Shown: one piece after another, positions 36,580 through 55,179 of the stretch
Numbering within the stretch: position 1 is the stretch's first letter
Layout: every line of letters starts with the position of its first letter
Source of the DNA: Candidatus Latescibacterota bacterium
Lineage (GTDB): Bacteria; Latescibacterota; UBA2968; GCA-2709665
DNA length: 64,000 nucleotides
Reading direction: 5' to 3'
Assembly: GCA_963667175.2 (NCBI GenBank)
Contig: CAXXXF010000018.1
Span: 224,001 to 288,000, forward strand
Position numbers and translations under genes: made by a program
The notes under the pieces: generated by a model
Told to the model about the DNA's origin: nothing
The model's input: the letters and a program-made list of their open reading frames with translations, nothing else
Database searches by the model: none

Positions 36580-36709
36580 GCGGGATTATCCATCCTACAG
36601 GCCCGATTTGACAGACAGACCACAAACACAAATGCGGCTGGAGGTGTACATGCAAAGTCGACTATCGTCAAAAAACAGTACAAGGCTGAGAGCGCACCCA
36701 CAGCAAATA

Positions 36710-38217: not shown

Positions 38218-38257
38218 AGGCTGGCAGAGATGACTTGGCCTGGGCGTTCAAGACAAT

Positions 38258-38350
38258 GGCGCCCTGGATGTCGATCTATCCGGTCACCGAGGCAGTTATG
38301 AGCGCGCAGTGCTGTACATTGATCAGTGCAATGGTATTGTTCGCGATGGC
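38258..38350 (-). pseudogene. hsdS: Relic 3' end of an hsdS gene
   Basis: Hand translation AIANNTIALINVQHCALITASVTG*IDIQGA aligns without gaps to the intact HsdS end SVVKNAISLIKERRSALISAAITGRLDIGNV. Confidence 0.7.
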
Positions 38351-38361
38351 TCAGCGAGGGC

Positions 38362-38633
38362 GAGCCGTTCGCGTCCATCCAGAGGCAAGGGTTCGAGAAA
38401 ATCTGCCATCCCGTTCGATCGCCGTGAAGCGCCTCCAACTTGGCCCAGTCTTTGGGTTGCGTATCACGAATGAACGCCAGCACCGCGTCAGGAAAGATCG
38501 CGCGTTCCCGATCGAAGCCATCTCCGGCGACCGAGACGTAACCATTCACCAGAAGATGCGCCTCAATGGCGGTTTCGAAGGCGGCTTCGGAATGTCTGTC
38601 TTCTCTCGGAAAGTTATCTGTCTCTCCGTGCAA
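38362..38633 (-). pseudogene. hsdR: Relic 5' end (~75 codons) of an hsdR gene
   Basis: HSEAAFETAIEAHLLVNGY...WMDANGS versus intact [19 protein letters not shown]...WMDANGS; similarity then stops abruptly. Confidence 0.88.
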
Positions 38634-39324
38634 ATCGCTTGCGCTGACGGTGTTTCGTGAGGGCGTCCATATGCTCTGTCAGACCGCCTCGTATTGCAAC
38701 GCAAAACTCGTTGAAGCTACCATTCCCTTTACGGTCGCAAATCGTGTCGCGCACACGTTGCGCTTTGGTATAAGACAAGGGTGCATTCCCCGTCGGTCCG
38801 TAGATGAATTCCTCAATAACGCGCTTTCGGTCTTCGGTAAGACTCCTGTGATCGAGACCAAGGACGTTAATGGTCGTTACGGCTTCGTTTCGATTGTTAA
38901 CTGCCTCAATCTCACCATTAAGCTCGAATCGAAAGACCTGTTCGCAGGCAGGCTGAAGTGGAGAAACGAATTCGGCGCCATCGTTATCCCACCAATTGTT
39001 CTTAAGTTGCGCGCCATAGCGACATTTTGCCTTCATACCTTCTCGTGGGAAACACGCTACCAGATTGGTGTAGTCCAGGTCAGATCCAGGCAGTTCCGCC
39101 CGGCAGCGACTCTGTGGCTTGATATGCTCGACATGCGATGAACTGCTGTCGATTCGACGCATCGTATAGGCACACAACCCGCCCTGGTCTGCAACCATAG
39201 TCTTCAATATCTGATCCTTCAGAGTCGAAGGCGCCTCGCGCCAATCAGATTTATTCGTTCCCTCAACTTCAGTGCACCACACGGAGTAGGAGTGCGGGCA
39301 CCCGGATTTCTGGACGTGCTTCAT
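38614..39324 (-). CDS. HNH endonuclease, TIGR02646/PtuB-like
   Basis: DQGGLCAY, HVEHIKPQS, DYTNLVAC and TINVLGLD motifs; coupled to the AAA ATPase. Confidence 0.85.
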   Translation of the reverse strand: MKHVQKSGCPHSYSVWCTEVEGTNKSDWREAPSTLKDQILKTMVADQGGLCAYTMRRIDSSSSHVEHIKPQSRCRAELPGSDLDYTNLVACFPREGMKAKCRYGAQLKNNWWDNDGAEFVSPLQPACEQVFRFELNGEIEAVNNRNEAVTTINVLGLDHRSLTEDRKRVIEEFIYGPTGNAPLSYTKAQRVRDTICDRKGNGSFNEFCVAIRGGLTEHMDALTKHRQRKRFARRDR

Positions 39325-40640
39325 TCGCCCAGAATCTCCAGTCGAGTGATACGCGCTTCAAGAACGGACCACTCCGGCAGGTCAAGCCCGTTCTCTTTGG
39401 CCTCTGAGATCGCGGTGTGCGCTTTCTCGAAGGTTCCTTGCGCAATCAAGTTTTCAACTGATTGAATGGCAGCCATCGCCTCCTTCGGTCGGTCATCGGC
39501 CTCCATGAGGTGGCGCAGTATCCAGTTTGAGTCCATGCCAAGGCTGCGGTCCGGATGGACAATTTCACCAGGTGCCAAGGGGTGAACCTGATCGGGCTCG
39601 ACGGACGCCACGACCTGCGGCGAGTGAGTCGTCGCGATGAACTGGCAGTTTGGAAACGTCGCGGTCAGGTTATGGACGATTTGCCTCTGCCATTTGGGGT
39701 GAAGATGCAACTCCAATTCGTCAATCAGGACGACCGCATGACCTTCACTCAGGGGATCATCTAGTGATGGATTCGCCTGGGATAATCGTCGAGCGATGTC
39801 AAGGACCAAGGCCAACAACCCACGCTCACCATCCGATAATTTCCGTACATCAAGAGTAGTTCCATCGTGGTCGACTAAGAGGCGAGGTGTTTCTTCGTCA
39901 GTTGGTCGAAGATTCTCATAGGTCGGCAGGAATCTTTCAACCGTCGATCGTAGCACCTCTATGTTTCGCTTTACCGCGGAATTCTCCACAGCAAGAATCG
40001 CCTGTGCACGCATCCAATGGGCAAAGTGTGATACATACATCGGTCGGGATACAAGGGCACCGGCGTAAGCCACTGCCATACCACCAGTTGCCATAGACTC
40101 GGTTGGACGGCGAGAAGAGAACACGGAGCGATCGGTAGAGAAGAACACGCCGTTGGGAGCCACCCGAGAGGTGTAGGCGGCGGCAGCGAAATCAGCTTCA
40201 GACGGCAGGAGGAAATCGGAATCATAAACTCCGTGAGATTCATCAAGCTCACGCAACGGCTTTACCGCCCGGTCGCGTAATCGCTCAGACTCCAAAATCT
40301 TCCTTTGGAGATTCTTTAAATTCTCTTCACTGTCAGCCGCGATCGGCTCCCTCCATTGACGCCGCGTAAAATGGAAATCTTCCTCGTTTATCGTCAGTGA
40401 CAGTTCGGCATCCAGGAACGGGAAGTCGCTTCTTATGTCTTCAATCTCAAAGGAAATCGGCTTCGCGCGAGGTTTCGGCCAACTTCTGAGTATTCTAGAT
40501 TGACAAATGCGCAACGCGTCCAAAACAGTGGTTTTCCCAACGCCGTTAACGCCGACGATCAGGTTGAATCCCGGCTGAAATAGAAATTCAGCATTTTCAA
40601 TTGCACGCAGGTTGGTTATTTTGAGACGCGTGAGAATCAT
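39321..40640 (-). CDS. ABC/AAA ATPase, PtuA-like
   Basis: GVNGVGKTT, LSDGE, VLIDELELHLHPKWQ and QFIATTHSP motifs. ATGA overlap with hsdS. Confidence 0.88.
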   Translation of the reverse strand: MILTRLKITNLRAIENAEFLFQPGFNLIVGVNGVGKTTVLDALRICQSRILRSWPKPRAKPISFEIEDIRSDFPFLDAELSLTINEEDFHFTRRQWREPIAADSEENLKNLQRKILESERLRDRAVKPLRELDESHGVYDSDFLLPSEADFAAAAYTSRVAPNGVFFSTDRSVFSSRRPTESMATGGMAVAYAGALVSRPMYVSHFAHWMRAQAILAVENSAVKRNIEVLRSTVERFLPTYENLRPTDEETPRLLVDHDGTTLDVRKLSDGERGLLALVLDIARRLSQANPSLDDPLSEGHAVVLIDELELHLHPKWQRQIVHNLTATFPNCQFIATTHSPQVVASVEPDQVHPLAPGEIVHPDRSLGMDSNWILRHLMEADDRPKEAMAAIQSVENLIAQGTFEKAHTAISEAKENGLDLPEWSVLEARITRLEILGE

Positions 40641-41833
40641 GCGACGTTTCCTATATCCAGGCGCCCGGTAATTGCCGCTGAGATTAATGCGGAGCGACGC
40701 TCCTTGATCAACGAGATGGCGTTCTTCACTACGGACTGGAGTGAGTCGAGCTGCTCGATAGAAGTGGCTATCTTCCCCAGGATGACCGCCTGCTCCTTGA
40801 CCGGAGGAACCGGCACGCGCAGATTTCCGATCTCTTCGCACGTCAGCGCGCCTTTGGTTCCGCCAGCATCATCGCTGATGCTTCTAAGAAAATCGTATGC
40901 GGCAGATAATGTCCATTTCAAGAACCAAGGCAGAAGACGAGACGGGTTCGGATGAATAAATGCAAGGTGCTGATTGATGGTCGCATCGAATGAGAGAACG
41001 GCAGCCCGTCCCCTCGTTTTCCCTTGGCCAGTGATCGCCACGAGAACACTACCGCTCTTTACTTGGGGCAAGTGACATTCGTGAGCAGCTAGCTCAGTCA
41101 CGAATTGATCCGCGTGGGTGACTTCGGGGTGATTCACGACACTGCTGTTGAGCCACGGAATCCTGCCTTTATTCCAATACGCAGCATTGTTGCGGCTGGG
41201 CGTAGACCCGTTCCCGACCTCTGCGAGGTGTCCGACTTTCCAGGTTTCCCAATGCGCTGGAATCTTGCCCAGCCAGGGGATACCAGAGTCCCCTAGCAGG
41301 ACGTTTGGCTCGACGCCACGGGTGATGGCGCGGGTGATGAGTGCACGGCGTTTTTCGGCCAGCAGGGCCAGTAGCTTCTCCTTTTCCGCGATTAGCGCAT
41401 CGATCCGCGCCGTCTCGCGGTCGAGGTAATCCGCGATGGCGCGCTGTCGGGGCAGAGGCGGGACAAGCGCGTCTTTGGCGTATGCTGTTTCACGATTAAG
41501 GCCCGGAACTGCAGCTTCGTCTGTTCCTTCATCAAGCCGCAAAGTTTGAAGAAGCCAGTAGAGCCAGCGCAAGTGGTTCCGACTAGTGGATTTGTCAATG
41601 AAGAAGGTCGTATCGGATGCGAAGCAAGATTCCGCTGTCCAGTTGACCTTGCCATAGGAGCCTTTTCGTCCTATGACGATCGCTGGTGATCCAGTGTTGG
41701 CCCTTGAGGTATATCCAAATGGTCCGTTGGAACCAAACACACGGAAGCCACCATTTTGTGGTTCATCACGCGGCAATGTTTCTCCATACCCCAATCGAGC
41801 AACATATTTCAGCTTCACCCTTGGCCACATCAC
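40637..41833 (-). CDS. hsdS: Type I R-M specificity subunit
   Basis: Two TRDs with conserved helices PPLPRQRAIADYLD...EKRRALITRAIT and PPVKEQ...ERRSALISAAITG; SGIPWLGKIPAHW. Confidence 0.93.
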   Translation of the reverse strand: MMWPRVKLKYVARLGYGETLPRDEPQNGGFRVFGSNGPFGYTSRANTGSPAIVIGRKGSYGKVNWTAESCFASDTTFFIDKSTSRNHLRWLYWLLQTLRLDEGTDEAAVPGLNRETAYAKDALVPPLPRQRAIADYLDRETARIDALIAEKEKLLALLAEKRRALITRAITRGVEPNVLLGDSGIPWLGKIPAHWETWKVGHLAEVGNGSTPSRNNAAYWNKGRIPWLNSSVVNHPEVTHADQFVTELAAHECHLPQVKSGSVLVAITGQGKTRGRAAVLSFDATINQHLAFIHPNPSRLLPWFLKWTLSAAYDFLRSISDDAGGTKGALTCEEIGNLRVPVPPVKEQAVILGKIATSIEQLDSLQSVVKNAISLIKERRSALISAAITGRLDIGNVA

Positions 41834-43815
41834 GCCGTCACCTCCCTAAGCAGCCGGATGATTTTCTCTTCGGCCTGCTTCAGATCCGCGTCGATCTCCT
41901 CCAGCGGTCGGGGTGGCGTGTGCTTGTTGAAGTGCCGGTTGAAGTTGATCTCGTACCCGACCTTGTCCTTGCTTCTGTCCATCCAGGCTTCGGGCACATG
42001 GGGGAGGACCTCACGCTCGAAGTAGGCGTCGACGTCCTCAGCGAGCGGCACATTCTCGAAGTCTCGGAGTTCGGCGTCGGGCTCGTATTCGTTCTCTCGG
42101 CCATCCTTCCTGACCGGTTCGCCGTCCGGATCTTTAACGGTGAAGACGTCTCGGAAGAGCCTCTGTTCTACCTTCTTCCAGCGCGATTGGCGCTTATACA
42201 GGAGAGCGCTGATATTTCCCCAGGTCGCATTCCAGTCGCGCATGGGCTCGCGTCCCAACACTTTATCGATGTCCTGGACGTCATCCAGCAGGTACGGACA
42301 CGCGTCCAGGAAACGCGCTTTGTCTTCAAAGGTCATCTGGTAGCGTAGGCGCAGAGGGCGCTCCACGGTCACGCGATTATAGCCGAAGTCCTCGTTGTCG
42401 AAAATCTTCGAGCGATCACATTCCTCGAACCGACCGTAAAGTCGCACAATTTCCCCGGCATGTTCAGCGCTGATGTGCCGGCGTTTGTCGCCCAGACTGC
42501 GTCTGTTGTCGTCGCTTCCGCCGGCTGTCCACATCTCGCGGGCGTCGACCAGTTGAATCTTCCCGGTTCGGTTATCTTCCTTGCGGTTGGTGACAATCCA
42601 GATATACGTACCGATGCCCGTATTGTAGAACATCTGCTCAGGCAGGGCGATGATGGCCTCCAGCCAGTCATTTTCGATTATCCACTTGCGAATGTCGCTT
42701 TCGCCGGATCCGGCGCCGCCGGTGAAGAGGGGCGAGCCGCTGAACACAATCGCAAGGCGAGACCCATGCTTGTGCTCCTCCGGACGCAAGGGTTCGAACT
42801 TTCGGACCATGTGCTGCAGGAAAAGCATCGATCCATCGTTTACGCGGGGCAGTCCTGCGCCGAAACGGCCCGCGAAACCAAGCTTTTCGTGCTCATTGCG
42901 CACCTCGTTGCGTTGTTTCTTCCAGTCCACGCCGAAGGGGGGATTCGTAAGAAAGTAGTCAAAGGTCTCTCCGTCGAACTGGTCTTGCGTCAAACTGTCG
43001 CCGAATCGGACGTTGTCACCGCCGCCGTCGTGGTCGACCTGCTTCATCAGCGTGTCTGAAGCGGCTGTGGCAAAGGCGCGCTGGTTGTAATCCTGTCCGT
43101 AGACGTACAACCGCGCGGCACTGTGGTGCTCCCGCTGGTAGTTCTGCGCTTCGGCCAACATGCCGCCCGTGCCGCAGGCGGGGTCGAGCAGCTTGCGCAC
43201 GACGCCTGGCGTCGCGAGAAGCTCATCGTCGTTAATGAACAGAATGTTCACCATCAGTCTGATAACGTCACGTGGCGTGAAGTGATCGCCCGCGGTCTCG
43301 TTTGCCAGTTCATTGAACCGACGGATCAGATGCTCGAAGAGCAGCCCCATCTGCTCGTTGGGAACCCGGTCCGGGTGCAGATCCACGTCACAGAACTTTG
43401 AGACGATCATATAGAGGAGGTTGGCCTCTCGCATCTTCTCGATTTCAGTCTCGAACTCGAAGTACTCGAAGATGTCGCGCACGTTTTTCGAGAACCCATG
43501 GATGTAACTGACAAGGTGTTGGGCGACGTTGTCCGGGTCGCCCTTGAGTTTCTCAAAGTTTAGCGGTGAGCGGTTGTGGAAACGCTCATTGGCGGCCCTG
43601 TTCAACCTGGCTTCGAGCGCGCGACCCCTGAACCTGCCGCGAGAGCGTTCGTACTCAGCGAGCACGCCGGACCTGGTCGGTTCGAGCACGCAGTCGAACC
43701 GTCGAAGCACGGTCATGGGCAACATCACGCGCTCGTACTGCGGCGGCCGATACGGCCCACGCAGCAGGTCGGCGATGTGCCAGATCAGGTTCGCGAAGTA
43801 GCTGTGGTCAGGCAT
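41830..43815 (-). CDS. hsdM: Type I R-M methyltransferase subunit
   Basis: IWHIADLLRG, GDHFTPRDV, DPACGTGG, NPPF and FYNTGI motifs. Confidence 0.96.
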   Translation of the reverse strand: MPDHSYFANLIWHIADLLRGPYRPPQYERVMLPMTVLRRFDCVLEPTRSGVLAEYERSRGRFRGRALEARLNRAANERFHNRSPLNFEKLKGDPDNVAQHLVSYIHGFSKNVRDIFEYFEFETEIEKMREANLLYMIVSKFCDVDLHPDRVPNEQMGLLFEHLIRRFNELANETAGDHFTPRDVIRLMVNILFINDDELLATPGVVRKLLDPACGTGGMLAEAQNYQREHHSAARLYVYGQDYNQRAFATAASDTLMKQVDHDGGGDNVRFGDSLTQDQFDGETFDYFLTNPPFGVDWKKQRNEVRNEHEKLGFAGRFGAGLPRVNDGSMLFLQHMVRKFEPLRPEEHKHGSRLAIVFSGSPLFTGGAGSGESDIRKWIIENDWLEAIIALPEQMFYNTGIGTYIWIVTNRKEDNRTGKIQLVDAREMWTAGGSDDNRRSLGDKRRHISAEHAGEIVRLYGRFEECDRSKIFDNEDFGYNRVTVERPLRLRYQMTFEDKARFLDACPYLLDDVQDIDKVLGREPMRDWNATWGNISALLYKRQSRWKKVEQRLFRDVFTVKDPDGEPVRKDGRENEYEPDAELRDFENVPLAEDVDAYFEREVLPHVPEAWMDRSKDKVGYEINFNRHFNKHTPPRPLEEIDADLKQAEEKIIRLLREVTA

Positions 43816-43879
43816 GGGTAAAATCGACTATAGATTTGGTTGCGATTTTCGTTTTGGTTTAACGATGTTCACAAGAGGC

Positions 43880-43965
43880 CGCCGCCAGGACGGCTTCGCG
43901 CGAGACCGACGGATAGCTCAATCTAATCTAATCGGGATCCAGACCGGAAGCCAGATTGTCCAGAA
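43880..43965 (-). promoter_or_regulatory. 86-bp upstream module, copy 1 (putative promoter of hsdM)
   Basis: Gapless diverged repeat of 54049-54134. The minus strand has TGGCTT-N17-TAGATT. Confidence 0.55.
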
Positions 43966-44050
43966 CCTCAGTCCCTACGTGCCAATATAGGGTGAGACAA
44001 CTTCCCCTTCGAGATTAATGTCGTATCATGGGCGGAGAGGAGAACAAGAG

Positions 44051-44518
44051 ATGAGGTCAAGGACCGATGTTGTAGGCAACGGCAGCAAGGGGTCTCTGGT
44101 TGTGGAGGTCCCGCGCGGGACCTCCACAACCACGAGGCCGGATCCGGAAGTGCCGGCGCGTGCGCGGCGTCGCCGTTTCACGGCAAAGTACAAGCTTCGC
44201 ATCTTGGAAGAGGCCGATGCGTGTCGCGCTCCTGGTGAAGTCGGCGCGCTGCTGCGCCGCGAGGGACTGTATTCCTCGCAGTTGACGCAGTGGCGTCGTG
44301 CGCGTCGCGAGGGGTCGCTCAAGGCGCTGTCGAAGCTGCGGGGACCGCAAGGGCGTCGCCGCGACGAGGTGGCCGTCGAGAACGAGCAACTGCGCAAGGA
44401 GATCGCCCGTTTGCGACGACGATTGGAACAGGCGAACACGATCCTCGAGATCCAAAAAAAAGCCTCCGAGATCCTGGGCATCCCCCTGAACCCGCCAGCA
44501 GGCGACGACGACGTATGA
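44051..44518 (+). CDS. IS3-family transposase OrfA (HTH)
   Basis: RRRFTAKYKLRIL...LLRREGLYSSQLTQWR plus a leucine-zipper-like segment. Confidence 0.9.
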   Translation: MRSRTDVVGNGSKGSLVVEVPRGTSTTTRPDPEVPARARRRRFTAKYKLRILEEADACRAPGEVGALLRREGLYSSQLTQWRRARREGSLKALSKLRGPQGRRRDEVAVENEQLRKEIARLRRRLEQANTILEIQKKASEILGIPLNPPAGDDDV

Positions 44519-45528
44519 TACGGGCGGCAGAACAACTGGCCCCGAAGGTCGGGTTGGCTTCCGCGTGCCGGGCCCTGGGTGTGGCGCGGGCTTCGGTCTA
44601 CCGTGCGCGTCAGCCAGCCCAACGCGGGCCTCGTGGCGCCCGGTCCTCGTCGCCACGTGCGCTTTCCCAAAACGAGCGCGCTACCGTGCTGGACATCCTG
44701 CACGAGGACCGCTTCGTAGACCAGGCGCCACCGGCAGTCTACGCCGCGCTGCTCGAGGAAGGGCGGTATGTCTGCTCGATCCGGACCATGTACCGTCTGC
44801 TGCACGATGCAGGAGAGGTGCCCCAGCGGCGACACCAGCGGCGTCATCCACGTCTGGAACCGCCCCGCTTGATGGCGGATGCGCCCAACCAGGTCTGGAC
44901 ATGGGATATCACGCGGCTGCCAGGAACCCGCAAGTGGGAAACCTATCCCCTCTACGTCGTACTGGATCTGTTCTCACGCTATGTCGTGGCCTGGATGGTC
45001 GCCACAAGGGAAAGCGCCACATACGCCAAGCGCCTGATCACCAACGCCTGCAACAAGCAGGGCATTCAACCCGGACAACTGACGCTGCACCAGGACCGCG
45101 GCGCACCCATGACAGCCAAGACGTTTTCGCAGTTGCTGATGGACCTCGACATCCTGGCCAGCTACGCTCGACCCCGCGTCTCCGATGACAACCCGTATTC
45201 CGAAAGCCAGTTCAAAACGCTCAAATACGCGCCTTCATACCCCGGGCGCTTCACCGGTCCGCAAGAAGCCCGTACCTATTTACAGACCTTCTTTTCCTGG
45301 TACAACACGCAACACCGGCACAGTGGACTGGGCTTACTCACGCCCGACACCGTCCACCATGGGCTCACACAGCAGGTGCAAGCCGCCAGACAATCGGTGC
45401 TGGATCAGGCTTATCACAACCACCCTGAACGATTTGTTAAGGGGCATCCTCGACCACCACACGTTCCGGACCAAGTCTGGATTAACCAACCACAGAACAC
45501 CATCGAATGCCAACAACTGCTACACTAA
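44515..45528 (+). CDS. IS3-family transposase OrfB (DDE/rve)
   Basis: NQVWTWDIT, LDLFSR, HQDRG, DNPYSESQFKTLK and YNTQHRHS motifs. Confidence 0.93.
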   Translation: MIRAAEQLAPKVGLASACRALGVARASVYRARQPAQRGPRGARSSSPRALSQNERATVLDILHEDRFVDQAPPAVYAALLEEGRYVCSIRTMYRLLHDAGEVPQRRHQRRHPRLEPPRLMADAPNQVWTWDITRLPGTRKWETYPLYVVLDLFSRYVVAWMVATRESATYAKRLITNACNKQGIQPGQLTLHQDRGAPMTAKTFSQLLMDLDILASYARPRVSDDNPYSESQFKTLKYAPSYPGRFTGPQEARTYLQTFFSWYNTQHRHSGLGLLTPDTVHHGLTQQVQAARQSVLDQAYHNHPERFVKGHPRPPHVPDQVWINQPQNTIECQQLLH

Positions 45529-45688
45529 ACCCCAACGGGAGGTGTCTCATTTCTATTGACACGTTCCGAGTCACCAGGACTCGCGTACCGGCGATGCACG
45601 CGATGTTTTCAAAAAACGCTTGACAAGGTATACACAAATAATGATCATTAATTATGAATAATAATGATATATAACCAAGGAGACTTTC

Positions 45689-46249
45689 GTGCTCAAAACG
45701 ATTGAAATTCCAACTTTTAGTCAAACGTGGATAAATTCCACCACACCTTTAATACGAAAAAAAAATGACGTACAACAACAAATGAATGAATTATTGGAAG
45801 AACCTGTTAGAGAAATAATACGAAACTTTCATGATTTAAATGACTCTTTAAAGCAAGGAATAAAAAAGGAGTTTGAATTTTATCAACGTCTTAAGACTTT
45901 TGATGATAACACAATCCAACAATTAAATGTAGATAAGCGGGAATTTGCCAGGTTAGATAATGTTTATGTTAATTTAAAAAATAGACAATCCCAATATAAA
46001 GAATTTAAGAATAATGTGATTGATACTATTGCTGAATTACAGTCTATCATAAAGGCAACACCAGCTCTATGGAAAGAATCAACACAATTAAACAAGGTAA
46101 AACGTAATATTAATCGAAATCTAAATCACATAATAGCCTTATCACAAGAATCAAGTTGGATCTTATCCATAATTATCGATACTCAATGCTCAGAGCGTAG
46201 TGACGTATATGACTCCGCCCATAAGGCACTAGAAGCCTTGTGGGAGTAA
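45689..46249 (+). CDS. AT-rich coiled-coil hypothetical protein, putative antitoxin
   Basis: RBS AAGGAG before GTG; lies directly upstream of a RelE-like gene. Confidence 0.6.
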   Translation: MLKTIEIPTFSQTWINSTTPLIRKKNDVQQQMNELLEEPVREIIRNFHDLNDSLKQGIKKEFEFYQRLKTFDDNTIQQLNVDKREFARLDNVYVNLKNRQSQYKEFKNNVIDTIAELQSIIKATPALWKESTQLNKVKRNINRNLNHIIALSQESSWILSIIIDTQCSERSDVYDSAHKALEALWE

Positions 46250-46254
46250 CACAG

Positions 46255-46548
46255 ATGCTGCATAAACCTCTGGAGTCATTAAATCAAATTGCCTTTAGTC
46301 CTCGGGTGAAAAAACAACTACGCAAGTTACGCAGTCATATTGAAGGAACATTCGATAAAGCCTTATACGAACTACAGACAGGAGAACTATCTAACGGTCG
46401 TGAATTTAAGAAAGATCAATTCTTCTATACGATTCGATTAAATGATAATTATCGAATTGCTTTTACTATCGAAAAAGAAATACTACATATAAGATGCGTC
46501 GGCCCACATTCAACTATTGATCGCTATAGAAAAATTGGTGAATTATAG
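46255..46548 (+). CDS. RelE/ParE-superfamily toxin-like protein
   Basis: IAFSPRVKKQLRKL...FYTIRLNDNYRIAF...IRCVGPH pattern; RBS GGGAG. Confidence 0.75.
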   Translation: MLHKPLESLNQIAFSPRVKKQLRKLRSHIEGTFDKALYELQTGELSNGREFKKDQFFYTIRLNDNYRIAFTIEKEILHIRCVGPHSTIDRYRKIGEL

Positions 46549-46705
46549 ACCATAATTAAATAAACCCCCCCAGAACCCCCGCCACAGATCCGCCTCCTCC
46601 CGCCAATAAAACTGATAACCCGCCTCTGGCAGATACTGTTCCGCCATTCCTCACTGTATCGGTGGTGAGTATCATACGCTTGACCTGCACCGCCTAACTT
46701 AATAT

Positions 46706-47029
46706 TTACTTGTGAAATTGACCACTAGGTTGTTTTCTCCATAGATCGTCCTGGGCGAATTGCTCGTGGGCGGTATCGCCGAGTCTCGGCGCCTCAAGCT
46801 GAATAACTGTCGAACCTGATTCCAGTCCAGTAATTGTAAAGTCGATCGAAGCGCCCAACCACGGTGGCCTCGCTCCCTTCCCCACGCCAACACCAGTGGC
46901 TATCAGGCGGGTGGCTCGCTCTGCGGTCGTGAGGAGGGCAGCCGTCACCCGGCGAAGGGTCGTCATTCTGATCTGCCCTTCGCCTTCTCTAAGACCACTG
47001 ATGCGGAGTTGATAGCGTTCTGTCTTCAT
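46706..47029 (-). pseudogene. Hypothetical protein, probably a truncated N-terminal fragment
   Basis: YQLRISG...ATRL...ITGLESGSTVIQLEAP, then ends at a junction with AT-rich sequence. Confidence 0.5.
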
Positions 47030-47349
47030 GGCGGTGTTCACCTTTGTTGTGTGCCGTTCTATAGCTCAGGTTCGGCAGCTTTGTAGTTTCGCGCTTTGTA
47101 TTCGCCCAAGAGTCTCGATACAAGCTGCGATGTGTTCAAAAAACGATCCCGTAGCTGACCTTTTCCCAGATCCGGTCCAACCAGGAGTCGGTCAGATCCG
47201 GCTGTACCGCCAGATCAGTCATCGGGCATAATTTGTGAAGACGTCACGAGAACGTCAAATGTTCCGGCTTACGTCTTTCCGGGCATTCATTTCAGCAAGG
47301 ATAGGCGTTCTCAATTGTCGAAATATATAAGCCGAAAAAGACTACCCAT

Positions 47350-48648
47350 CTACAACCTTGTATTTAGGCCAGCCCTGATCGCCTTCTCTAACGCCGCGCA
47401 AAACCTTTCGTAATCCCGTAGGGATATCGGCCGATAGTGTGCCACTGCATTGCGGAGCTGGCGCGAATGGTGTACAAGTGGAAGCCATCGCTGTTCTACC
47501 TGTATATTAGGACATTTCTGCAGCAGATATTCCAAGTGTCCCCACTGACAGGCAAACGGCGTCTCTCTTACTTCCTGGCATTCTGTTTCTGTATCCGGCT
47601 CCTGCCATTTGTAAGGCCAATTCAATCCGTACGACCGGTTCAGATGAGTACATAGCACCAATCTAATCTCGTCAATCTCAGCCAGTAGGAATCCCGCTTG
47701 ACCTCGCCACAATCGATGATCCAATGTTTCCTTTTGATCCAATAGAGCTAAGACTGCGCTATGGCGTTCCAGCCCATATTCCGGAGTCCAATGGACCATT
47801 CCCCGAGCCCAAATCTTATACATTGAATTTGGTAATGCCCAATCCTCTTGCCAAAGTGTGGGATTTCGAGAATGGCTATGTAAAGGCCAATCCTCCAATT
47901 CCGTCCGATCCCATCCACGTTGCTGACCATAAGCCCGCAGTAGGTGCGCTAATTCCGCTCTATCGCTATACACTTGAGACCAAAGATAATCTGCCAAATC
48001 TATATCAGAGCCCGCAATGGCCGGAATCGTGTGCTCTTTCCATCGGCTTAAGGGACCGGTATCCTGATCGGATGCCAGGCGACACAGGAGTCGCATCTCC
48101 AATGTCGTGGGGATGCCTCTCCAAGGACGGATAGAAAGGAATACATTAGTTTCGGGAAGTGGGTAATGTACTTGAGACGCATGGGCTATCAAACAAAACG
48201 CCGGGAAGATTTCGACTCCATCTTCGTCGGTGGAGTGCATTCCTTGACAAACCTGCGCCCACTGCACCACAAAGCGAAGCCACTTTACTCGATCTTCTTC
48301 TTCCAGTTGATCAAACCCATCGAGAAACAGGATTTCCGGCAAGTCTGCTCGTTTCAGTAGATTCTCAACTGTCCTCGGCGTGGAGGATGCACCCCAATCT
48401 ACTCCGAGAGCCTGGCCCAAAGCTGCAGCCGGCGTTTGGACGTCTAACTGTGATATGAGGATCTGGTCAATCTGTAAGTGCCAGTGGTCGAGTCCTTCCC
48501 TCAAGGCCAACCGCAACATACTTGGATCGATACCATCGGGAAACAGAACCAAAACACTTCGGGCATGCCGTAAGTCGTCCTGTATCAGTTCCAACAAATG
48601 CCGGACGGTCGGCAGTTGCATCATGTAGGTGGTCAGTTCCAAGCTCAT
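47350..48648 (-). CDS. Degenerate P-loop/STAND-like protein with a C-terminal HEPN-like Rx4H motif
   Basis: ILFLDGFD Walker-B-like strand without a Walker A Lys; LRNAVAH at 47437-47457 near the C-terminus; 4-nt overlap with the upstream gene. Confidence 0.65.
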   Translation of the reverse strand: MSLELTTYMMQLPTVRHLLELIQDDLRHARSVLVLFPDGIDPSMLRLALREGLDHWHLQIDQILISQLDVQTPAAALGQALGVDWGASSTPRTVENLLKRADLPEILFLDGFDQLEEEDRVKWLRFVVQWAQVCQGMHSTDEDGVEIFPAFCLIAHASQVHYPLPETNVFLSIRPWRGIPTTLEMRLLCRLASDQDTGPLSRWKEHTIPAIAGSDIDLADYLWSQVYSDRAELAHLLRAYGQQRGWDRTELEDWPLHSHSRNPTLWQEDWALPNSMYKIWARGMVHWTPEYGLERHSAVLALLDQKETLDHRLWRGQAGFLLAEIDEIRLVLCTHLNRSYGLNWPYKWQEPDTETECQEVRETPFACQWGHLEYLLQKCPNIQVEQRWLPLVHHSRQLRNAVAHYRPISLRDYERFCAALEKAIRAGLNTRL

Positions 48649-51600
48649 AGAGGGCTAACTATTCGACCTATGACGGACTCAACGCGGTACTCTCCATCCC
48701 TTTTTTCGAGGCATCCCATCCGGGTCAAGAACTCCACAGCCAACTTGCAGTCCTCTAACGTGAGAGGAGGAGTTCCTTCCACCAGATCTCCCAAAGTCTC
48801 CAAATCCTCTTCTGAGACTTTGTCACATTCGACTAAAGTCCGTACTACTCGGCGAGACTCCGCCCGGGAATCCAAACCGACCTGCTGCAACAGCTTAGAG
48901 CCCAACTTGGATCCCGGACTGGCAACCTCCTCGATCAGACTTTTCGCATGAGATCGGGGGTCGTCATGGTCGCCGCACCGGCGCAAAAGGTCATCCAGCA
49001 AGAATGGCCACCCCCCGGTGGCCTCCAGCACCTTCCGGCAAATCTCGGGCGAATCCAGCTTATCGGCCTGGCTCAATCGCTGTTGAATTCCGACTTCGTT
49101 CCACCGACGCAGGTAAATGGAGTCAGTCCCATCCTCGAGGCCGGTACGCTGATCCGCAGGTAATCTCAGCCAGGTCCAGGCAGCCTCCGGTTTGAGGACA
49201 AAAACGACCCGTAGGGGCCGCCTACCCCTTTGGTTAAAATCCCCGCACATCAGCGATACTTTCCAGACGTATCGGGCCATATCGCCTCCTGTGCCCCTGA
49301 GCCGACCATAAGTCAATAACTGCTCGAACCCTCGTTGCTTTTTGGCGTGGGCGTCCAACCATGCACAGGTTCGATTGGCCTGGCTCAATTCTTGAGCAGG
49401 AATCTCACTGCCACCCATACGGTCTAAAGCCTGGTCCAACGCGTCCAGTCCCAATGCCTGGGAGCCAAAGACTAGACTCACGCCGGATGCCCCGGATTGT
49501 TGGATGCGGCCTTCTTCTACTAACGTCAACGGACTGTATCTGAGGCCCTGGTCACCCAATAGTACGTGCTGACTATCGGGCTGAAACTGGGTGGGCTGAG
49601 ATTTTTCCGATAGCTCCAACAGACGACTTTCTATATCCTCCTCGGTACCCATCATGCGGACGAGATTGGGACTGCGTAGCATGTATTGATTCTCATCCTG
49701 GTTGTGTACCAATATGCCCAGACCGACCATTTCTCCTAATAGTCCTCTCAAGGCTTCGGTGTGGACGTCATCGAAACCTTGAGGCCACCACTCTCGCGCC
49801 CGTTGGAGAAGCTCGTTCACGCTGAATGAACGGACATAGCTGTCTCGCGTCTCTTTTTGCTCATAGATCATGGACCACGCGATACACTGATATCGTGGAT
49901 CCAATTGCAGAGTCCAATCGAGCCGTTCCCGAATGACCTTTCGAGCTTGAGGCAAGCGATACACGGCCTCGACATCCTCCGAGCGCACTTTGTAAGGCGG
50001 TCCGGTAATGGACCTCTTGGCTTGCAGGCGGCGCACGAGTTCATGGCAGAAATACTGTATCAAACCGGGATGGTAGTTGGTGTAGGACAAAACTTTGAGC
50101 ACTGTGGTCTCATCAACGAACCGGTAACCCAGCGTCTCCAGAGGTTCCCGCACCAGGTCCCGGGCGGAACTGGCTTCGAGAGGTCCCACCAGTAAATTCT
50201 CGCCGAAGTGCGCCAAAGGCTGGTTGGGGATATCATTAAACCTTTGGACGTTGTGCAGTCCGGCAAAGACCACCTTGAAGCGAGATTGAGTATCCTGCAT
50301 TAGGGATCTCAGTCTTTCGACGACTTGGAAGCTGTTTTGAGCATCGGCACCCAGGAAGGAATCGGCTTCATCAAGCAGGACGAGAACACGCCGCTGCGGA
50401 GCCACATCCATTGCGTTTTGGATGTGGCTTATGATTCTGTCAGGTTGAGACGCCGCTATCCGCTCTCCGATTAGTGAGTGTTTCTTAAAGCCATCACGCA
50501 ATTTTATCCACAGTAGATCGGGCTGTTCGCCTGCCAGGGCATCACCCACCAGCTTGATGTCTTGGACCCAGGCATACCGCTCGTGATCTGGCTCGTGAAA
50601 CGTACGCTCTACCTGGCGCAATAGTGCGGACTTGCCCAACTGTCGCCCACCGAATACGATGCAGTTACCCTCGTTTTGTAGCTGACGCACCATTTTGTCG
50701 CGACCATAGTACATTTCAGGCGGTACGTTTCCTGCCTGGAACGGCGTATAGGGATTCAAAGCAGCGTAGGGCAAACTACAACGCAGGAAAGCTGGAAGGC
50801 GGGTATCGTCAAGCCTGGCCAGGAATGCCAGTAGGACCTCATCGAGCACCACGAGAGCCAATTCTCGTTGCCCGGCACGCGTGGCTATGTCTCCTCGTCG
50901 CCGTTCAGTCAATCGTCCGAGGAAAAAAACGATGACAGTCTTGGTATCCAGTCCTATTTCACGCAAAAAAGCTCCGATAGAGGCGGCACCAGGGCGTTCC
51001 CACAGACATACCACATCGTAGCGGCCATTGGCTTGCGAGCCCAGTTGAGGGATCGGCCGCGCGAGGTCGCTGGCCGATGCATCTACTTCGCAGTGGAGCC
51101 AATCCCGGCCTCGATTCTTCACTTTGACAGCCGATTCTCTTTCCGGTAGATGAAAACCAAGATATGCCAACAAGTTTGGTACATGCCGATGAGCAACTGT
51201 TGGCTGGTCCTGATGTCGCTTAAGCATGTGCCAGGATCGAAAGGCCCTGACGACTTCATCTCGGCGGGTTTTTGGTAACTCACCGAACGCCACCTTTTCC
51301 CAAGTTTTGCCTTTTTCAACCTCACGGGCCAATTGATTGACATTCCCCAAGCTTGCAAGCCCCGATTCAATACCTGGACTTGCATTCTTGAACTCACTTA
51401 AGTAGTCGCGTTCGGAAGGTGGGGCTAACCAGGCACTATCCCATTCAACCTCACCCTGGAGGACTTCGCGCAGGTGGGCTAAGCCTTCTTCGACGACTCT
51501 GGTATCGCCCTGTTTAAAGGATTTCTGAATAAACGCCTTCAAGGCTTTCATTTGGTCGACTTCGATCTTTTGCAATAGGCCTTGCCGCATTTCCTTCCAT

Positions 51601-53942
51601 TGACTTTTCAACTCTTGCAATCGGTCTGCGCGTTTCTGGTTCAATTGGTGCTCAATATCGTCCAGTCGTCGGAACAGAGGCTCGAAGCACATGGGCTCTT
51701 CAATCTCCGCTGTTTCCAATTCAGCGCTGAGACCGGTACGTTCTTCTTCAACCAGTAGCCCGTCGACCATTCCCTGTTCGATTGCGCCCCGTACGCTGGC
51801 GACCTTATCCGCAAGAGCCGCTCGGGCACCCTTGAGCGCCTCGTCGTTTCGATCCTCGAACTCTTGACGTTCGTCATCGTCATTCAACGCATTCCGCAAT
51901 ATATCGGCGAATCGAAAATCCTGCCCTTCAATGTGCATGGTACAGGCTGCATTAAGTGCGCGTTCCTCGGCCAGGGACTGCCGCAAGAACGTGGCAATAT
52001 CTGCCTCTTGATCCTCTCCAAGAAAGCCGTGGTCGTCCAGGGAAACTTCAGGGAGCCACAACAGGCGTCTCGTTAACGCCTGTTTCAGTGAGCCGCTTTC
52101 GCGCTGCATCCATGCTTGAGGATCTTCATTATCGGCTTGCCCCTCTAAACCCAACAATCGGGTTACTTGGCCTATAGCCAGGTGCAAAACGCGGGCACAT
52201 GCGGCTTCTTGTTCGGCTTGTTCCTGCTGTTGCATGCGATCGAGTTCGGATGTGACATCTGGCAAGATTGCTTGTATTTGGTCACGCAATTCCCTTACAA
52301 GATCGGTCCACCAGTCGCCGTTGGTGTTGATCACCTCACTCTTCTTAATCAAGGAACACCAGTGGTCGGCCAACGTCACAGCGTCTTCTATGCTGCGTAC
52401 CAATTGGTCTCGCGGAACTCCGGTGATCGGTCTGGAGGGACGCCCTGGCGTTAACTCACGGTCAATCTGGTGAATGCGGTCCTCAATCTTGCGGCCTTTG
52501 AGTTCTCTTACTCGCTGTCGGATCTTTTCGATTTCGTCGGTATGGTTATTACTCACCGGATACAATAGTTGCCCCAAATCTCCGTCTCGGTTCACCAATC
52601 GTCGGAGGACGTTTGTCGCCCTTACCATTTTTAGTCTACGGACCTTATTGTTCTCCAATAGGCTACCCGCTCTCGTAGCTGTCTCTTCAATGCCGTCTGA
52701 TAAATCTGCCTGATGTTCTACGCCAAGTAAATCGTCCCGCTGCAAAGGATAACCTGCGCGGGTAAACGCACGAATTGCATCAGCCAGCCTGCCGAAAGGG
52801 GAATCAACCTCATCTCTTTGTGGAAGCCAACTGGTCAATCCGGTGTACGGGGCAATTAAGGCGGGACGAATTGCCGCAGCCAATCCTAAAACTCGCTCGG
52901 CGTTATTTTTAGGTGCCAGATCCGTTGTAATGTCTTTGATAGCGTGGACCAAACTGTCAGCATCGTCTTCCAACCAACGCGAGCCTTGAAGCACGGCAAG
53001 CAATTCAGGCGCGACGGGTACGTTTCGGCCTCTTGCTTTCAACGAAAGAGCAAGCCAATAGGCGCCTGCCCAATCCTCTTCAGCCAACAGGCTCCAGCCC
53101 AGCGATTCCCAGTTCTCATCGGAGTCGTCCTCTTGCAATTGCATCGCCGCGTCGCGAACCGAACGCAACTTTGCCGACCTTTTTACGGGGTGCTGGAGTG
53201 TTGAAGGGGCGGGCTCGCTCTGCTTCGGTTCGGACTCGTCTGGCTTGTCTGAAAGTTCGCCTTCGGCATCTTGCTGGTTGGAACTGGTTTCCTCTTTAGA
53301 TTCGTCTGCGGGGGGACGAGCGTCTTTCTTGGCCGGTTGCTCCTCATCAGAACCAGGGTGTTCATCAGACGGACCTTTTCCGGGTTCAGGGGGATCCGTG
53401 TCGGGTTCATCGTCGTCTTGGGTGTCCTCTTCCGGGGTCTGTTGTGGCTCCGGTTCGGCTTCTGCAAACTCCTGTTCGAGTTGTTTTGCGAGTAAGTTTA
53501 TTCGATCTTCCGTGTCGTTCAAGTCCGTCCGATGCTTGCGGGTCTCCTGGAAGTTTTCAGGCGTTTCCTGCTTTAACATACGAAGCCCATTTAGCTGCTC
53601 CAGCAGATTTACGGCTATTTTCGCACGCCTTGGAACCTGATCAGCAGGGCAACTGGCCGCTTGCCAATTGGCTATGCCGAGGCTTTCGAATCCAAAAAAC
53701 GCTATCTCACCGGCGTAGTCGTCTCGCAATTGGTCCAATGTCTGTTGGAGATGGAGCCGCCCCGCTTTCTTCTGTTCGTCGCACTTGTGCTCGGCGAGGA
53801 GCCGTACCTTTTCGACGAATCCTTCGACCTGGTCTGTTTCCCATTCCGAAGCATCCGAAGGCCACTCGCGCAGTTCCTCAATAACGCTGGCCCATCGCGT
53901 ATCGTTCAGGCTCTCGCCATTCTGTTTCTTGACATCGCTCAT
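48645..53942 (-). CDS. Giant (~1765 aa) STAND-like NTPase with a second degenerate NTPase module
   Basis: NPY...MYYGR, GGRQLGKS, VLVLLDEAD, KVVFAG and NYHPGLIQ; second module VFGSQALG...TGGWP; RBS GAGGA. Confidence 0.8.
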   Translation of the reverse strand: MSDVKKQNGESLNDTRWASVIEELREWPSDASEWETDQVEGFVEKVRLLAEHKCDEQKKAGRLHLQQTLDQLRDDYAGEIAFFGFESLGIANWQAASCPADQVPRRAKIAVNLLEQLNGLRMLKQETPENFQETRKHRTDLNDTEDRINLLAKQLEQEFAEAEPEPQQTPEEDTQDDDEPDTDPPEPGKGPSDEHPGSDEEQPAKKDARPPADESKEETSSNQQDAEGELSDKPDESEPKQSEPAPSTLQHPVKRSAKLRSVRDAAMQLQEDDSDENWESLGWSLLAEEDWAGAYWLALSLKARGRNVPVAPELLAVLQGSRWLEDDADSLVHAIKDITTDLAPKNNAERVLGLAAAIRPALIAPYTGLTSWLPQRDEVDSPFGRLADAIRAFTRAGYPLQRDDLLGVEHQADLSDGIEETATRAGSLLENNKVRRLKMVRATNVLRRLVNRDGDLGQLLYPVSNNHTDEIEKIRQRVRELKGRKIEDRIHQIDRELTPGRPSRPITGVPRDQLVRSIEDAVTLADHWCSLIKKSEVINTNGDWWTDLVRELRDQIQAILPDVTSELDRMQQQEQAEQEAACARVLHLAIGQVTRLLGLEGQADNEDPQAWMQRESGSLKQALTRRLLWLPEVSLDDHGFLGEDQEADIATFLRQSLAEERALNAACTMHIEGQDFRFADILRNALNDDDERQEFEDRNDEALKGARAALADKVASVRGAIEQGMVDGLLVEEERTGLSAELETAEIEEPMCFEPLFRRLDDIEHQLNQKRADRLQELKSQWKEMRQGLLQKIEVDQMKALKAFIQKSFKQGDTRVVEEGLAHLREVLQGEVEWDSAWLAPPSERDYLSEFKNASPGIESGLASLGNVNQLAREVEKGKTWEKVAFGELPKTRRDEVVRAFRSWHMLKRHQDQPTVAHRHVPNLLAYLGFHLPERESAVKVKNRGRDWLHCEVDASASDLARPIPQLGSQANGRYDVVCLWERPGAASIGAFLREIGLDTKTVIVFFLGRLTERRRGDIATRAGQRELALVVLDEVLLAFLARLDDTRLPAFLRCSLPYAALNPYTPFQAGNVPPEMYYGRDKMVRQLQNEGNCIVFGGRQLGKSALLRQVERTFHEPDHERYAWVQDIKLVGDALAGEQPDLLWIKLRDGFKKHSLIGERIAASQPDRIISHIQNAMDVAPQRRVLVLLDEADSFLGADAQNSFQVVERLRSLMQDTQSRFKVVFAGLHNVQRFNDIPNQPLAHFGENLLVGPLEASSARDLVREPLETLGYRFVDETTVLKVLSYTNYHPGLIQYFCHELVRRLQAKRSITGPPYKVRSEDVEAVYRLPQARKVIRERLDWTLQLDPRYQCIAWSMIYEQKETRDSYVRSFSVNELLQRAREWWPQGFDDVHTEALRGLLGEMVGLGILVHNQDENQYMLRSPNLVRMMGTEEDIESRLLELSEKSQPTQFQPDSQHVLLGDQGLRYSPLTLVEEGRIQQSGASGVSLVFGSQALGLDALDQALDRMGGSEIPAQELSQANRTCAWLDAHAKKQRGFEQLLTYGRLRGTGGDMARYVWKVSLMCGDFNQRGRRPLRVVFVLKPEAAWTWLRLPADQRTGLEDGTDSIYLRRWNEVGIQQRLSQADKLDSPEICRKVLEATGGWPFLLDDLLRRCGDHDDPRSHAKSLIEEVASPGSKLGSKLLQQVGLDSRAESRRVVRTLVECDKVSEEDLETLGDLVEGTPPLTLEDCKLAVEFLTRMGCLEKRDGEYRVESVIGRIVSPL

Positions 53943-54048
53943 ATACAATCCTCAATATAGGATTCGTCTAGATTCCTGTATCATTTCGCGGTCTCATCTA
54001 CCCCGGAGTGACGACACCCTCATCCGCCAACGCTGCGGCATAGCAAAT

Positions 54049-54134
54049 CGCCGCCTGGTCGGATTCGCGTGAGACCGATGGATAGCTTTTCGTAATCTCG
54101 TCGGGGTCCAGACCGGAAGCAAGATTGTCAAGAA
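54049..54134 (-). promoter_or_regulatory. 86-bp upstream module, copy 2 (putative promoter of the STAND operon)
   Basis: Diverged repeat of 43880-43965. The minus strand has TTGACA and TTGCTT-N17-GAGATT. Confidence 0.55.
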
Positions 54135-54305
54135 TCGTGGTCACCAGAACAGGATGGCCGGAGTGGGAATTTGCGGTCTATGTGAGTCGATTTACTGCCG
54201 TTTCTCGTTCTCTCGTGCTTTTCTCTCGCTCCAGGCTTCTTCCTGCACCAAGTTATGATCCTGCTCCTGTTTTCTGTTCCTGATAAGCCTGGTTGGTTTT
54301 GGTTC

Positions 54306-54382
54306 TTATCCTGTTAATCCCGTTATTCCTGCTAATCCTGATCGCTCTTCGGTTTTCATCCTGTCCATCCTGTGCATCCATG
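54306..54382 (+). repeat. Tandem 9-mer (xxATCCTGT-like) repeats forming the intron 5' flank
   Basis: TTATCCTGT TAATCCCGT TATTCCTGC TAATCCTGA ... TCATCCTGT CCATCCTGT GCATCCATG; a related inverted copy lies at 58237-58252. Confidence 0.7.
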
Positions 54383-55144
54383 GTGCGCCGTGAAAGGCGC
54401 GGAACTCCAGTGGGTGAGAGTCCCACCCGACAAATGTTGCTACAGTCGGTAGCAACCGGAGCGGGGGTGAAGGTAACGACATCTCCGAAGCCTCCGGTGT
54501 AAAGGGTCGCAAGGCGACTCGGCGAGTATGCGGGCCGAAACGTGCAGTGAACGCTGAGCAGGCCTCGAAAAAGGTAATGCGGGAGCCGACCCGCCCATGG
54601 ATCGGGGAAGGCCGCCGTCGTTGGAAAAAGAGAGCAACGCGTGCATCCAACGGTCCCGCCGGGGTAATGGCGAAGGCACGTATACAAGGGGTTCCGACGC
54701 AACACGGGAAGCCCCAGCGGTGGTGAATAGACACCAACCGGACGCCCGTGAGGGACAGGCCGGGCCGTATGGGGTGGCGGACAGGCTCGTAGTACCCGTG
54801 AAGCCGGGTAACGCCGGTGGAGGGAAGGGGCCTGACTTCGGATGTGCTTGCGAAGGGGACAACTGTCGGGAGAGTGGCGCAAGCCTATTACCTCCTCTAA
54901 AAGTAGATGAGGCGACTCCGGAACAAGCTTGGGCTTCAGGTGAAGCTGTCCGGGCAGTGCGGGCAGCGTGTGCCTGAAGGCGACGTCCGTCGGAGAGCCG
55001 GATGCGGGAAACCCGCACGTCCGGTTCGACGAGCGGGATGTGGAAACGGAGCACGGAGCGGCTATTGAGGCACCGCCAGACGAAAGGGGCGGAAACAGAT
55101 AAGAAGGGCCACTCCTAAACCACCGCGCCACATCCCGACTCTAC
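54383..55144 (+). ncRNA. ORF-less group II intron ribozyme (762 nt)
   Basis: 5' GTGCG and 3' CTCTAC; domain V GAGCCGGATGCGGGAAACCCGCACGTCCGGTTC (54995-55027); DII/DIII-like GTAGTACC...GGGTAAC...GGAGGGAAGG; EBS1 CATGGAT (54596-54602) complementary to IBS1 ATCCATG (54376-54382); no RT ORF. Confidence 0.92.
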
Positions 55145-55179
55145 TAAGTTCCCGCTTATGAGTTGAAGGGGTTACACCC

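Follow-up and report, generated by a model that had tools for sequence, protein, structure and literature searches.

A 64,000-nucleotide stretch of a Candidatus Latescibacterota genome (contig CAXXXF010000018.1; hereafter the window, within which all coordinates are given) carries two adjacent minus-strand genes that a preliminary description, made from the letters of the DNA, had put forward as a candidate new NLR-like two-gene system. Gene 1, for the large subunit (48645..53948, minus strand), encodes 1767 residues if read from a TTG codon, or 1765 residues from the ATG at 53942, and gene 2, for its partner (47350..48648, minus strand), encodes 432 residues. The stop codon of gene 1 and the start codon of gene 2 share the letters ATGA, a 4-nucleotide overlap that was read directly in the sequence. 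The gene sizes, overlap and motif positions previously given were all confirmed. Promoter and terminator scans of the locus returned sites no more frequent than in shuffled sequence, and a search of public sequencing runs listed five runs of DNA or unknown type containing 5-10% of the sampled words, and no RNA run.

One intact STAND/ORC-type nucleoside triphosphatase (NTPase) module in gene 1 is well supported. This module 1 (residues 1064-1455; 49584..50759, minus strand) consists of a nucleotide-binding domain (NBD), a helical lid and a winged helix, and carries the Walker A motif GGRQLGKS at residues 1100-1107 (50628..50651, minus strand, exactly where it had been reported) and the Walker B motif LLDEAD at residues 1191-1196 (50361..50378, minus strand). 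Across 26 full-length homologues, the set on which conservation in gene 1 was judged, all eight residues of GGRQLGKS are invariant, as are D1193, E1194, A1195 and D1196 of Walker B, and both GGRQLGKS and DEAD are also invariant in a set of 47 sequences. The HPG region (S1288, Y1289, T1290, N1291, Y1292, H1293 and G1295) and P1066, Y1067 and R1083 of the NPY...YGR stretch are invariant too, and further invariant stretches read GLHNVQRF, SYTNYHPGLIQ and LRSPNLVR. R1236, in GLHNVQRF, is invariant and may be the arginine finger of gene 1. In Pfam scans of gene 1, AAA_22 scored above its threshold (32.7 vs 27 bits) and AAA_16 below it (22.3 vs 32.6 bits); over the 26 homologues, matches were obtained for AAA_22 (26), AAA_16 (24), AAA_14 (13), ATPase_2 (12, weak), nSTAND6 (6, also weak, best E 3e-4) and TniB (5). 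The intact STAND-type module claimed earlier is thus borne out by the invariant Walker A, Walker B and HPG motifs and by the AAA_22 match, and the Pfam data do not separate a classical STAND NTPase from the ORC/TniB-like base for this module. The gene 1 family is large, with at least 1556 clusters at E<=1e-3 among 7999 scored candidates; PF13401 is the sole Pfam family in most of the homologous clusters, and an informative functional name was found in none of the 120 clusters among the matches listed.

Sequence searches of the PDB with gene 1, with gene 2 and with the 47-sequence profile all returned nothing. An AlphaFold2 (AF2) model of gene 1 residues 985-1767, built on the 47 sequences (predicted local distance difference test score, pLDDT, 82.1; predicted template modelling score, pTM, 0.57), contains two modules in succession, both built of an alpha/beta core, a lid and a winged helix. 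When module 1 (residues ~1064-1450) was compared with known structures using VIA-align, PAB2304 (2qen) scored 19.5 (322 residues aligned, root-mean-square deviation 4.2), followed by SSO1545 (2fna) at 18.9, Cdc6/Orc1 at 15-17.5, plant NLRs at 16.5-17.3, MuB and TnsC at 14.5-16.2, CED-4 at 14.3, MalT at 14.0 and BrxC at 13.8; Foldseek agreed with VIA-align. Module 1 has the tripartite arrangement of NBD, helical domain and winged helix by which a nucleotide-binding oligomerization domain (NOD) is recognized. The TniB matches suggest another explanation, namely that the pair is a DNA-tracking or target-selection machine akin to TniB/TnsC/MuB or BrxC, polymerizing on DNA in a transposition-linked or restriction-like role, for which the HEPN domain of gene 2 (described below) would be only a back-up effector. 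Such a role is quite unlikely, since the matches to PAB2304, Cdc6 and NLR-type proteins, which include the winged helix, outscore those to the transposition ATPases.

The second module of gene 1 is degenerate (residues 1456-1767; 48648..49583, minus strand). It has no P-loop lysine, and its secondary structure in the AF2 model comprises a beta-alpha core, a lid containing the GGWP motif (residues 1645-1648; 49005..49016, minus strand) and a winged helix, with pLDDT of 73-94. Within the GGWP motif, G1646 and W1647 are invariant, and T1644 and G1645 are kept in at least 90% of the homologues. Foldseek aligned two-ring AAA+ proteins (p97, ClpA and ClpC) along ~700 columns of the model, but with a TM-score of only ~0.2.

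Gene 2 opens with a third module of this kind, a pseudo-ATPase (residues 1-300; 47749..48648, minus strand) with a predicted ORC/STAND-like fold. In the AF2 model of gene 2 (pLDDT 88.9), residues 1-~300 matched the structures of TnsC, NLRs, Avs5, Avs3, BrxC (9zdx and 9zll) and RdrA, the matches to Avs3 (8dgc) and Avs5 (9jap) being weaker. The P-loop position has no lysine and the Walker B aspartate is not conserved, so that the degenerate NTPase-like domain proposed for gene 2 holds, with Walker A and B both eroded. A word-indexed search with gene 2 found 98 clusters including itself, all annotated as hypothetical, and a profile of residues 1-300 retrieved 1228 representatives at E<=1e-3, 304 of them at E<=1e-30. 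This dead-module family spans at least 1228 clusters at 50% identity, from bacteria and at least one archaeon. From the best 150 of the 1228 representatives, a further 142 sequences were read, and 130 of these are full-length proteins of at least 380 residues.

The C-terminus of gene 2 (residues 306-432; 47353..47733, minus strand) is likely a Swt1-like HEPN domain and is a predicted RNase. The motif RNAVAH (residues 399-404; 47437..47454, minus strand), noted in the preliminary description as a putative HEPN Rx4-6H signature, is a predicted Rx4H catalytic motif in which, over 35 gene 2 homologues, R399 and H404 never vary and N400, A403 and Y405 are kept in at least 90%. Rx4H stands within the last 80 residues of 130/130 full-length representatives, 123 of which read RN, and it was found in 28/28 genome loci. 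A single Rx4H could be due to chance; because the motif is kept across the family, its conservation goes beyond chance. In the AF2 model, helix 380-403 ends in RNAVAH, which also opens the loop leading to the final helix (410-425); pLDDT in this region is mostly 93-97. HEPN motifs are placed at this same position by Anantharaman et al. 2013 (PMC3710099), and the location of RNAVAH thus fits the HEPN fold. HEPN_Swt1 (PF18731) is the only recurrent Pfam family for the gene 2 C-terminus, ranking first for 10 of 35 whole proteins (best E 1.7e-4) and, when C-terminal domains were scanned in isolation, for 13 of 30 (best E 5.2e-5), and the top match in the language-model Atlas is a 'Swt1-like HEPN domain-containing protein' (0.93, 188 of 256 features). 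The two fold searches were carried out with the whole of gene 2, and the AAA+ domain filled both. With the HEPN profile, the only PDB match, to ribosomal protein S15 (E 0.19), was taken as chance. The domain also starts with an invariant HRLWRGQ motif. As in PF18731, an Rx4H with N after R lies at the end of the penultimate helix; unlike PF18731, the gene 2 domain has this extra invariant motif and its matches stay below the gathering score of the family. Bacterial Swt1-like HEPN domains are described as active, frequently in fusions to ATPases, STAND proteins among them, and attachment of a Swt1-family HEPN to an ORC-like ATPase is also listed for Ava_2192 (PMC3710099, Table 1).

The N-terminal ~1060 residues of gene 1 fall into three parts. 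Residues 1-160 (53469..53948, minus strand) form a conserved domain with no fold assignment, in which W95 is invariant and W36 is kept in at least 90% of the homologues; a Pfam scan of this domain gave no match. Residues 160-270 (53139..53471, minus strand) make up a variable linker which, as previously claimed, is acidic: its 111 residues include 33 D+E, 17 P and only 7 hydrophobic residues, and it is the least conserved part of gene 1 and among the most gapped (column identity 0.27-0.30, 9-15% gaps). The remaining residues 271-1063 (50760..53138, minus strand) are a large uncharacterized region that matched no Pfam family, including when the 26 homologues were scanned. The final ~120 residues of this region show high conservation and in part an alpha/beta character: column identity climbs to 0.67-0.80 over residues 951-1100, and residues 985-1064 were modelled by AF2 as strand-helix units of low pLDDT (37-67); an Atlas search with residues 925-1066 gave no usable match. 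When the N-terminal domain was sought in shorter independent proteins, only two matches were obtained, both likely fragments. A 616-residue open reading frame (ORF) in a Roseiflexaceae metagenome-assembled genome (MAG; L047:8627-10477) joins the gene 1 N-terminal domain and an acidic, proline-rich linker to gene 2 residues 273-425, that is, a beta-hairpin plus the HEPN domain, with all three ATPase-type modules missing. This ORF may have arisen by deletion, or it may be a natural variant of minimal form, hinting that the N-terminal domain works with HEPN.

The two genes are inherited as a unit. In a survey of 168 species genomes of the phylum, gene 2 was found in 13 and a relative of gene 1 in 22, and gene 1 lies directly upstream of gene 2 in 13/13 of the genomes that have gene 2, including one pair at only 24-30% identity. 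Six distant gene 1 paralogues (27-32% identity) are all followed (6/6) by a gene of 309-408 residues ending in RNxL[AS]H, and gene 2 detects only two of these six partners by phmmer. Wider genome contigs, drawn from about ten phyla, gave 31 loci, and in 28 of them gene 1 immediately precedes gene 2 on the same strand; seven of these 31 loci come from Latescibacterota genomes that were mostly or entirely included in the phylum count. The other groups with the pair are Armatimonadota, Binatia, Chloroflexota, Acidobacteriota, Entotheonella, Bacillota, Myxococcota, Syntrophaceticus/Thermacetogenium and a Methanospirillum MAG. Three loci depart from this order: a 2.6-kb contig, a 254-residue fragment and the 616-residue fusion protein described above. 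The preliminary description had proposed co-occurrence as a check of the pair, and these counts speak for linkage. A housekeeping ATPase-RNase pair, acting in RNA processing or regulation, might be considered at this point, since some HEPN proteins take part in core RNA processing (PMC3710099) and the neighbours of the pair in other phyla are mostly housekeeping genes. It is a highly improbable explanation: the distribution is patchy (13/168 in the phylum; 2 of the 14 other genomes of the genus, or 3/15 counting the present one), close relatives differ by presence or absence of the pair at one site, where its GC content is lower, and several copies are split by frameshifts or stop codons.

That site is a variable hotspot (32800..55145, no strand) bounded by a PIN gene on one side and a core Lar_N-like gene on the other; the Lar_N-like gene is found in 15/15 genomes of the genus. 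In the window, the hotspot contains HsdR, DUF6575, AAA_21, HsdS, HsdM, an insertion sequence (IS), ParE and the pair; in congeners G051 and G056 (L059 and L057) it is empty, congener G052 (L058) has a type I restriction-modification (R-M) system and a ParE module without the pair, and in congener G055 the pair directly adjoins HsdM. The cargo of the hotspot thus varies over four species: empty, R-M and ParE, the pair and R-M, or all of these plus an IS. The pair itself is carried by an 8.4-kb indel (46691..55145, no strand), seen as a blastn gap against G052, the nearest genome retaining the adjacent R-M and ParE genes, in which homology runs to 46691 and begins again from 55145, with ~0.5 kb in between. 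GC content is 0.538 in the indel and 0.532 in the pair, vs 0.61-0.63 in the flanks. A second insertion site was found in genus g25 of the same class, where in three loci (L018, L020 and L021) the pair separates the permease gene of a sugar ABC-transporter operon from its ATPase gene and lies downstream of the gene for the periplasmic binding protein; the nearest neighbours scanned include neither a transposase nor an integrase gene. An insertion of this kind shows that the two genes are moved together.

A conserved third gene was sought and rejected: neither the 292- nor the 111-residue ORF beside the pair has a counterpart in 12 related loci, and the 502-residue protein that recurs next to the pair in one genus belongs to the interrupted operon as its ABC-transporter ATPase and is not a third component. 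The two flanking ORFs (54253-55131, minus strand, 292 residues, and 46706-47041, minus strand, 111 residues) both lie inside the indel and have no Pfam match. A short open frame just upstream of gene 1 (54000-54130, minus strand), ending ...DPDEITKSYPSVSRESDQAAICYAAALADEGVVTPG, is probably a remnant inside the indel, and presumably resembles the C-terminal part of a DUF433-type antitoxin-like protein.

Such surroundings raise the possibility of an addiction module, resembling a toxin-antitoxin system, that stabilizes its mobile DNA, with the HEPN domain as toxin, the giant ATPase as regulator and no phage sensing. HEPN RNases are common as toxins (PMC3710099), ParE, PIN and DUF433-like elements surround the pair, and the pair moves as a compact cassette. 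Yet a 1767-residue ATPase with an invariant catalytic site would be an unusual antitoxin, no conserved mobile-element genes accompany the pair, whose neighbours differ at every locus, and in one genus the pair is chromosomal inside the ABC-transporter operon; this explanation is accordingly held to be unlikely. The genomic setting bears in a similar way on the DNA-tracking machine introduced above. The pair stands beside type I R-M in two genus genomes, which would suit such a machine, whereas G052 retains the R-M genes without the pair, and no methyltransferase, helicase, PglZ or transposase is conserved beside it.

Taken together, the pair is read here as a self-contained, horizontally mobile two-gene conflict cassette, most likely acting in phage defence, with a probability of about 0.62. 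The domains and motifs would be best accounted for by an ATP-gated, two-chain NLR-like switch in which one live and two dead NODs control a HEPN RNase. In the resting state, the dead module of gene 2 would dock onto the gene 1 modules and hold the HEPN domains apart, in the way that inactive and active ORC subunits, or BrxB with BrxC, associate. A trigger, perhaps a phage protein or nucleic acid, might then be sensed by the N-terminal region or by the dead modules, and ATP at the GGRQLGKS/LLDEAD site would drive a conformational change or oligomerization. HEPN enzymes require pairing with a second HEPN domain for activity. Two HEPN domains brought together in this manner could form a composite active site and cut RNA, so that growth of the infected cell would stop. 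Complex prediction for gene 1 residues 1070-1767 with gene 2 residues 1-300 gave a score of 0.01 and a mark of 0.32, values that are uninformative on binding either way.

The closest published concept is nSTAND2, a computationally predicted, mobile two-gene counter-invader operon (Kaur, Iyer, Burroughs and Aravind, eLife 2021, PMC8195603). As described there, an active STAND NTPase is paired with a STAND protein that combines eroded nucleotide motifs with a fused HEPN or GT4 domain; the family takes a basal position, near transposase-type and CR-ATPases, an arginine finger is present in both proteins, effectors vary, and a toroidal hetero-multimer of active and inactive STAND proteins is proposed to deploy the HEPN effector (PMC8195603). 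The pair studied here resembles this description: both genes of a mobile operon encode a STAND-type module, the dead partner is fused to HEPN, and the NTPase belongs close to the transposase-ATPase/ORC base of the STAND class, a likeness judged by the published description. That the pair is simply another member of nSTAND2 therefore has a somewhat better than even chance. Several features stand against it: Pfam scans matched the nSTAND1, nSTAND3 and nSTAND6 models and never nSTAND2; the effectors of nSTAND2 are described as variable, whereas the HEPN tail is constant here, in 130/130 full-length partners among the best 150 of 1228; the published arginine finger in both proteins contrasts with a gene 2 dead module having no conserved Arg; and the main text of PMC8195603 describes neither a second dead module nor an N-terminal region of ~1000 residues, such as the extra dead module and ~1060 N-terminal residues of gene 1. 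A bolder proposal can be entertained, although it is doubtful: that the pair is a widespread immune switch distinct from the published nSTAND2, with an asymmetric-ORC design of one live and two dead modules on two chains, in which the dead modules would serve as receptors for nucleic acid or protein and a single ATP site would license Swt1-type HEPN dimerization, in effect a split NLR with pseudo-enzyme pairing and no adaptor domains. A census of STAND proteins in 589 clades (PMC13581612) may also contain the gene 1 family in its supplementary tables.

Other characterized systems share parts of this design. Each Avs protein is a single chain that begins with the effector and ends with a repeat sensor, and STAND oligomerization presumably couples sensing to the effector. 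The present pair is like Avs/AVAST and bNACHT in its P-loop NOD, made of NBD, helical domain and winged helix, and in its occurrence in a defence island; unlike Avs, it places the effector on a second chain, fused to a dead NOD. No repeat family that could form such a sensor (TPR, WD40) was found in Pfam scans of gene 1 and the 26 homologues, and no Avs or NLR model of PADLOC was matched at E<=1. In BREX, BrxC works with the inactive STAND/ORC-like BrxB, and in Hma the DUF499 ATPase carries a HEPN domain (PMC12839542), observations that also lend some support to the DNA-tracking explanation. The combination of an active ORC/STAND-like ATPase with an inactive partner is shared with BrxC-BrxB; unlike in BREX, the pair has no linked methyltransferase, helicase or PglZ gene (22 loci), and unlike in Hma, where the HEPN domain is N-terminal on the active ATPase (HmaC), it is here C-terminal on the dead partner. 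The closest structural matches of module 1, PAB2304 (2qen) and SSO1545 (2fna), which belong to Pfam ATPase_2, are small single-module proteins of unknown function, with 12-15% identity to module 1 and without a HEPN partner.

A number of results weigh against the conflict-cassette reading, or against parts of it. The tandem STAND arrangement claimed for gene 1 is weakened, being supported by the predicted fold of its second module, which has no P-loop lysine and keeps GGWP; by sequence, hhalign links module 2 to module 1 weakly (probability 3%, E 0.014), aligning the lid and winged helix only, with GGWP opposite YHPG. More generally, the profiles do not link the three modules (hhalign probabilities 3%, 0.5% and 13.6%), and because these links are weak, the picture of three related modules, like the tandem itself, comes from the AF2 models. 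No invariant or at least 90% conserved Arg was found in gene 2 residues 1-300 (35 and 19 sequences), leaving no candidate for a finger there. Every HEPN_Swt1 match lies below the Pfam gathering score, the copy in the window reaching E 0.023 and 15.4 bits against a cut-off of 27.5. The N-terminal 1060 residues of gene 1 are kept even in the 27-32% paralogues, where matches begin at 134-169 in 4/6, and conservation of this sort would suit a scaffold no less than it would a sensor that evolves fast. Neither protein had a significant match in PADLOC-DB v2.0.0 (mad8, E 0.035), as the preliminary description had expected, or in NCBIfam (MutL, E 0.072), and no experimental test of such a pair was reported among the papers listed in a literature search.

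The genomic context is also mixed. A neighbour scan covered 102 ORFs, up to three on each side, at 22 of the 31 loci (one per distinct Latescibacterota context, with short or broken loci dropped). The commonest PADLOC families match few of these ORFs, namely three for DruE-like helicases and mad8 and two for HerA, MTase_I and mad2; BrxL occurs once and a BrxH-like helicase three times, and most of the Pfam matches are to housekeeping or transport families. The defence-island setting, which had been proposed as a check, is therefore seen in the variable hotspot with R-M in this genus, and is thin across the 22 loci. Finally, the label of a new system is doubtful, because the design logic of nSTAND2 was published in 2021. 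The earlier statement that the pair matches no named system is right for PADLOC and has to be given up at the level of concept, where nSTAND2 already predicts the design (PMC8195603). The earlier interpretation is upheld in part. The system is real, widespread and unnamed in defence libraries, with a design principle that is already in the literature.

If the reading of a conflict cassette is correct, a very common defence module would be going undetected by current defence-finding libraries, and the pair would be a clean example from nature of a suicide RNase under the control of pseudo-ATPase partners, with three NOD-type modules of which one is live. The role of dead STAND modules, a question raised by Kaur et al. 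2021 and by work on BrxB, would be directly testable here by a few point mutants, and a working label is provided for more than 1000 clusters of hypothetical proteins.

Distant relatives of the NTPase within the phylum are caspase-PEGA-STAND proteins, which counts in favour of a defence role. Three proteins of 1034-1086 residues (L054-L056, in G166, G164 and G159) share the conserved stretch of gene 1 that precedes the NTPase as well as the NBD, at 28% identity; the one scanned by Pfam has N-terminal caspase and PEGA domains, and two of these loci continue with a gene whose product joins an AAA_35/nSTAND3-like module to a sigma-54 activator domain. Elsewhere in the window, the HsdR of the hotspot (33037-36579, minus strand) is an unusual fusion of HSDR_N, SWI2_SNF2 and T1R_D3 with a C-terminal LexA-like Peptidase_S24 (residues 1043-1173). 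A 1781-residue protein encoded at 26223-31568 (plus strand), ~1.1 kb downstream of a tRNA-Arg gene (24993-25073), was considered as a paralogue of gene 1 and rejected (BLASTP E 1.5); it is instead a fusion of DEAD/Helicase_C (RecQ-like) and UvrD helicases, conserved in G051 and G056.

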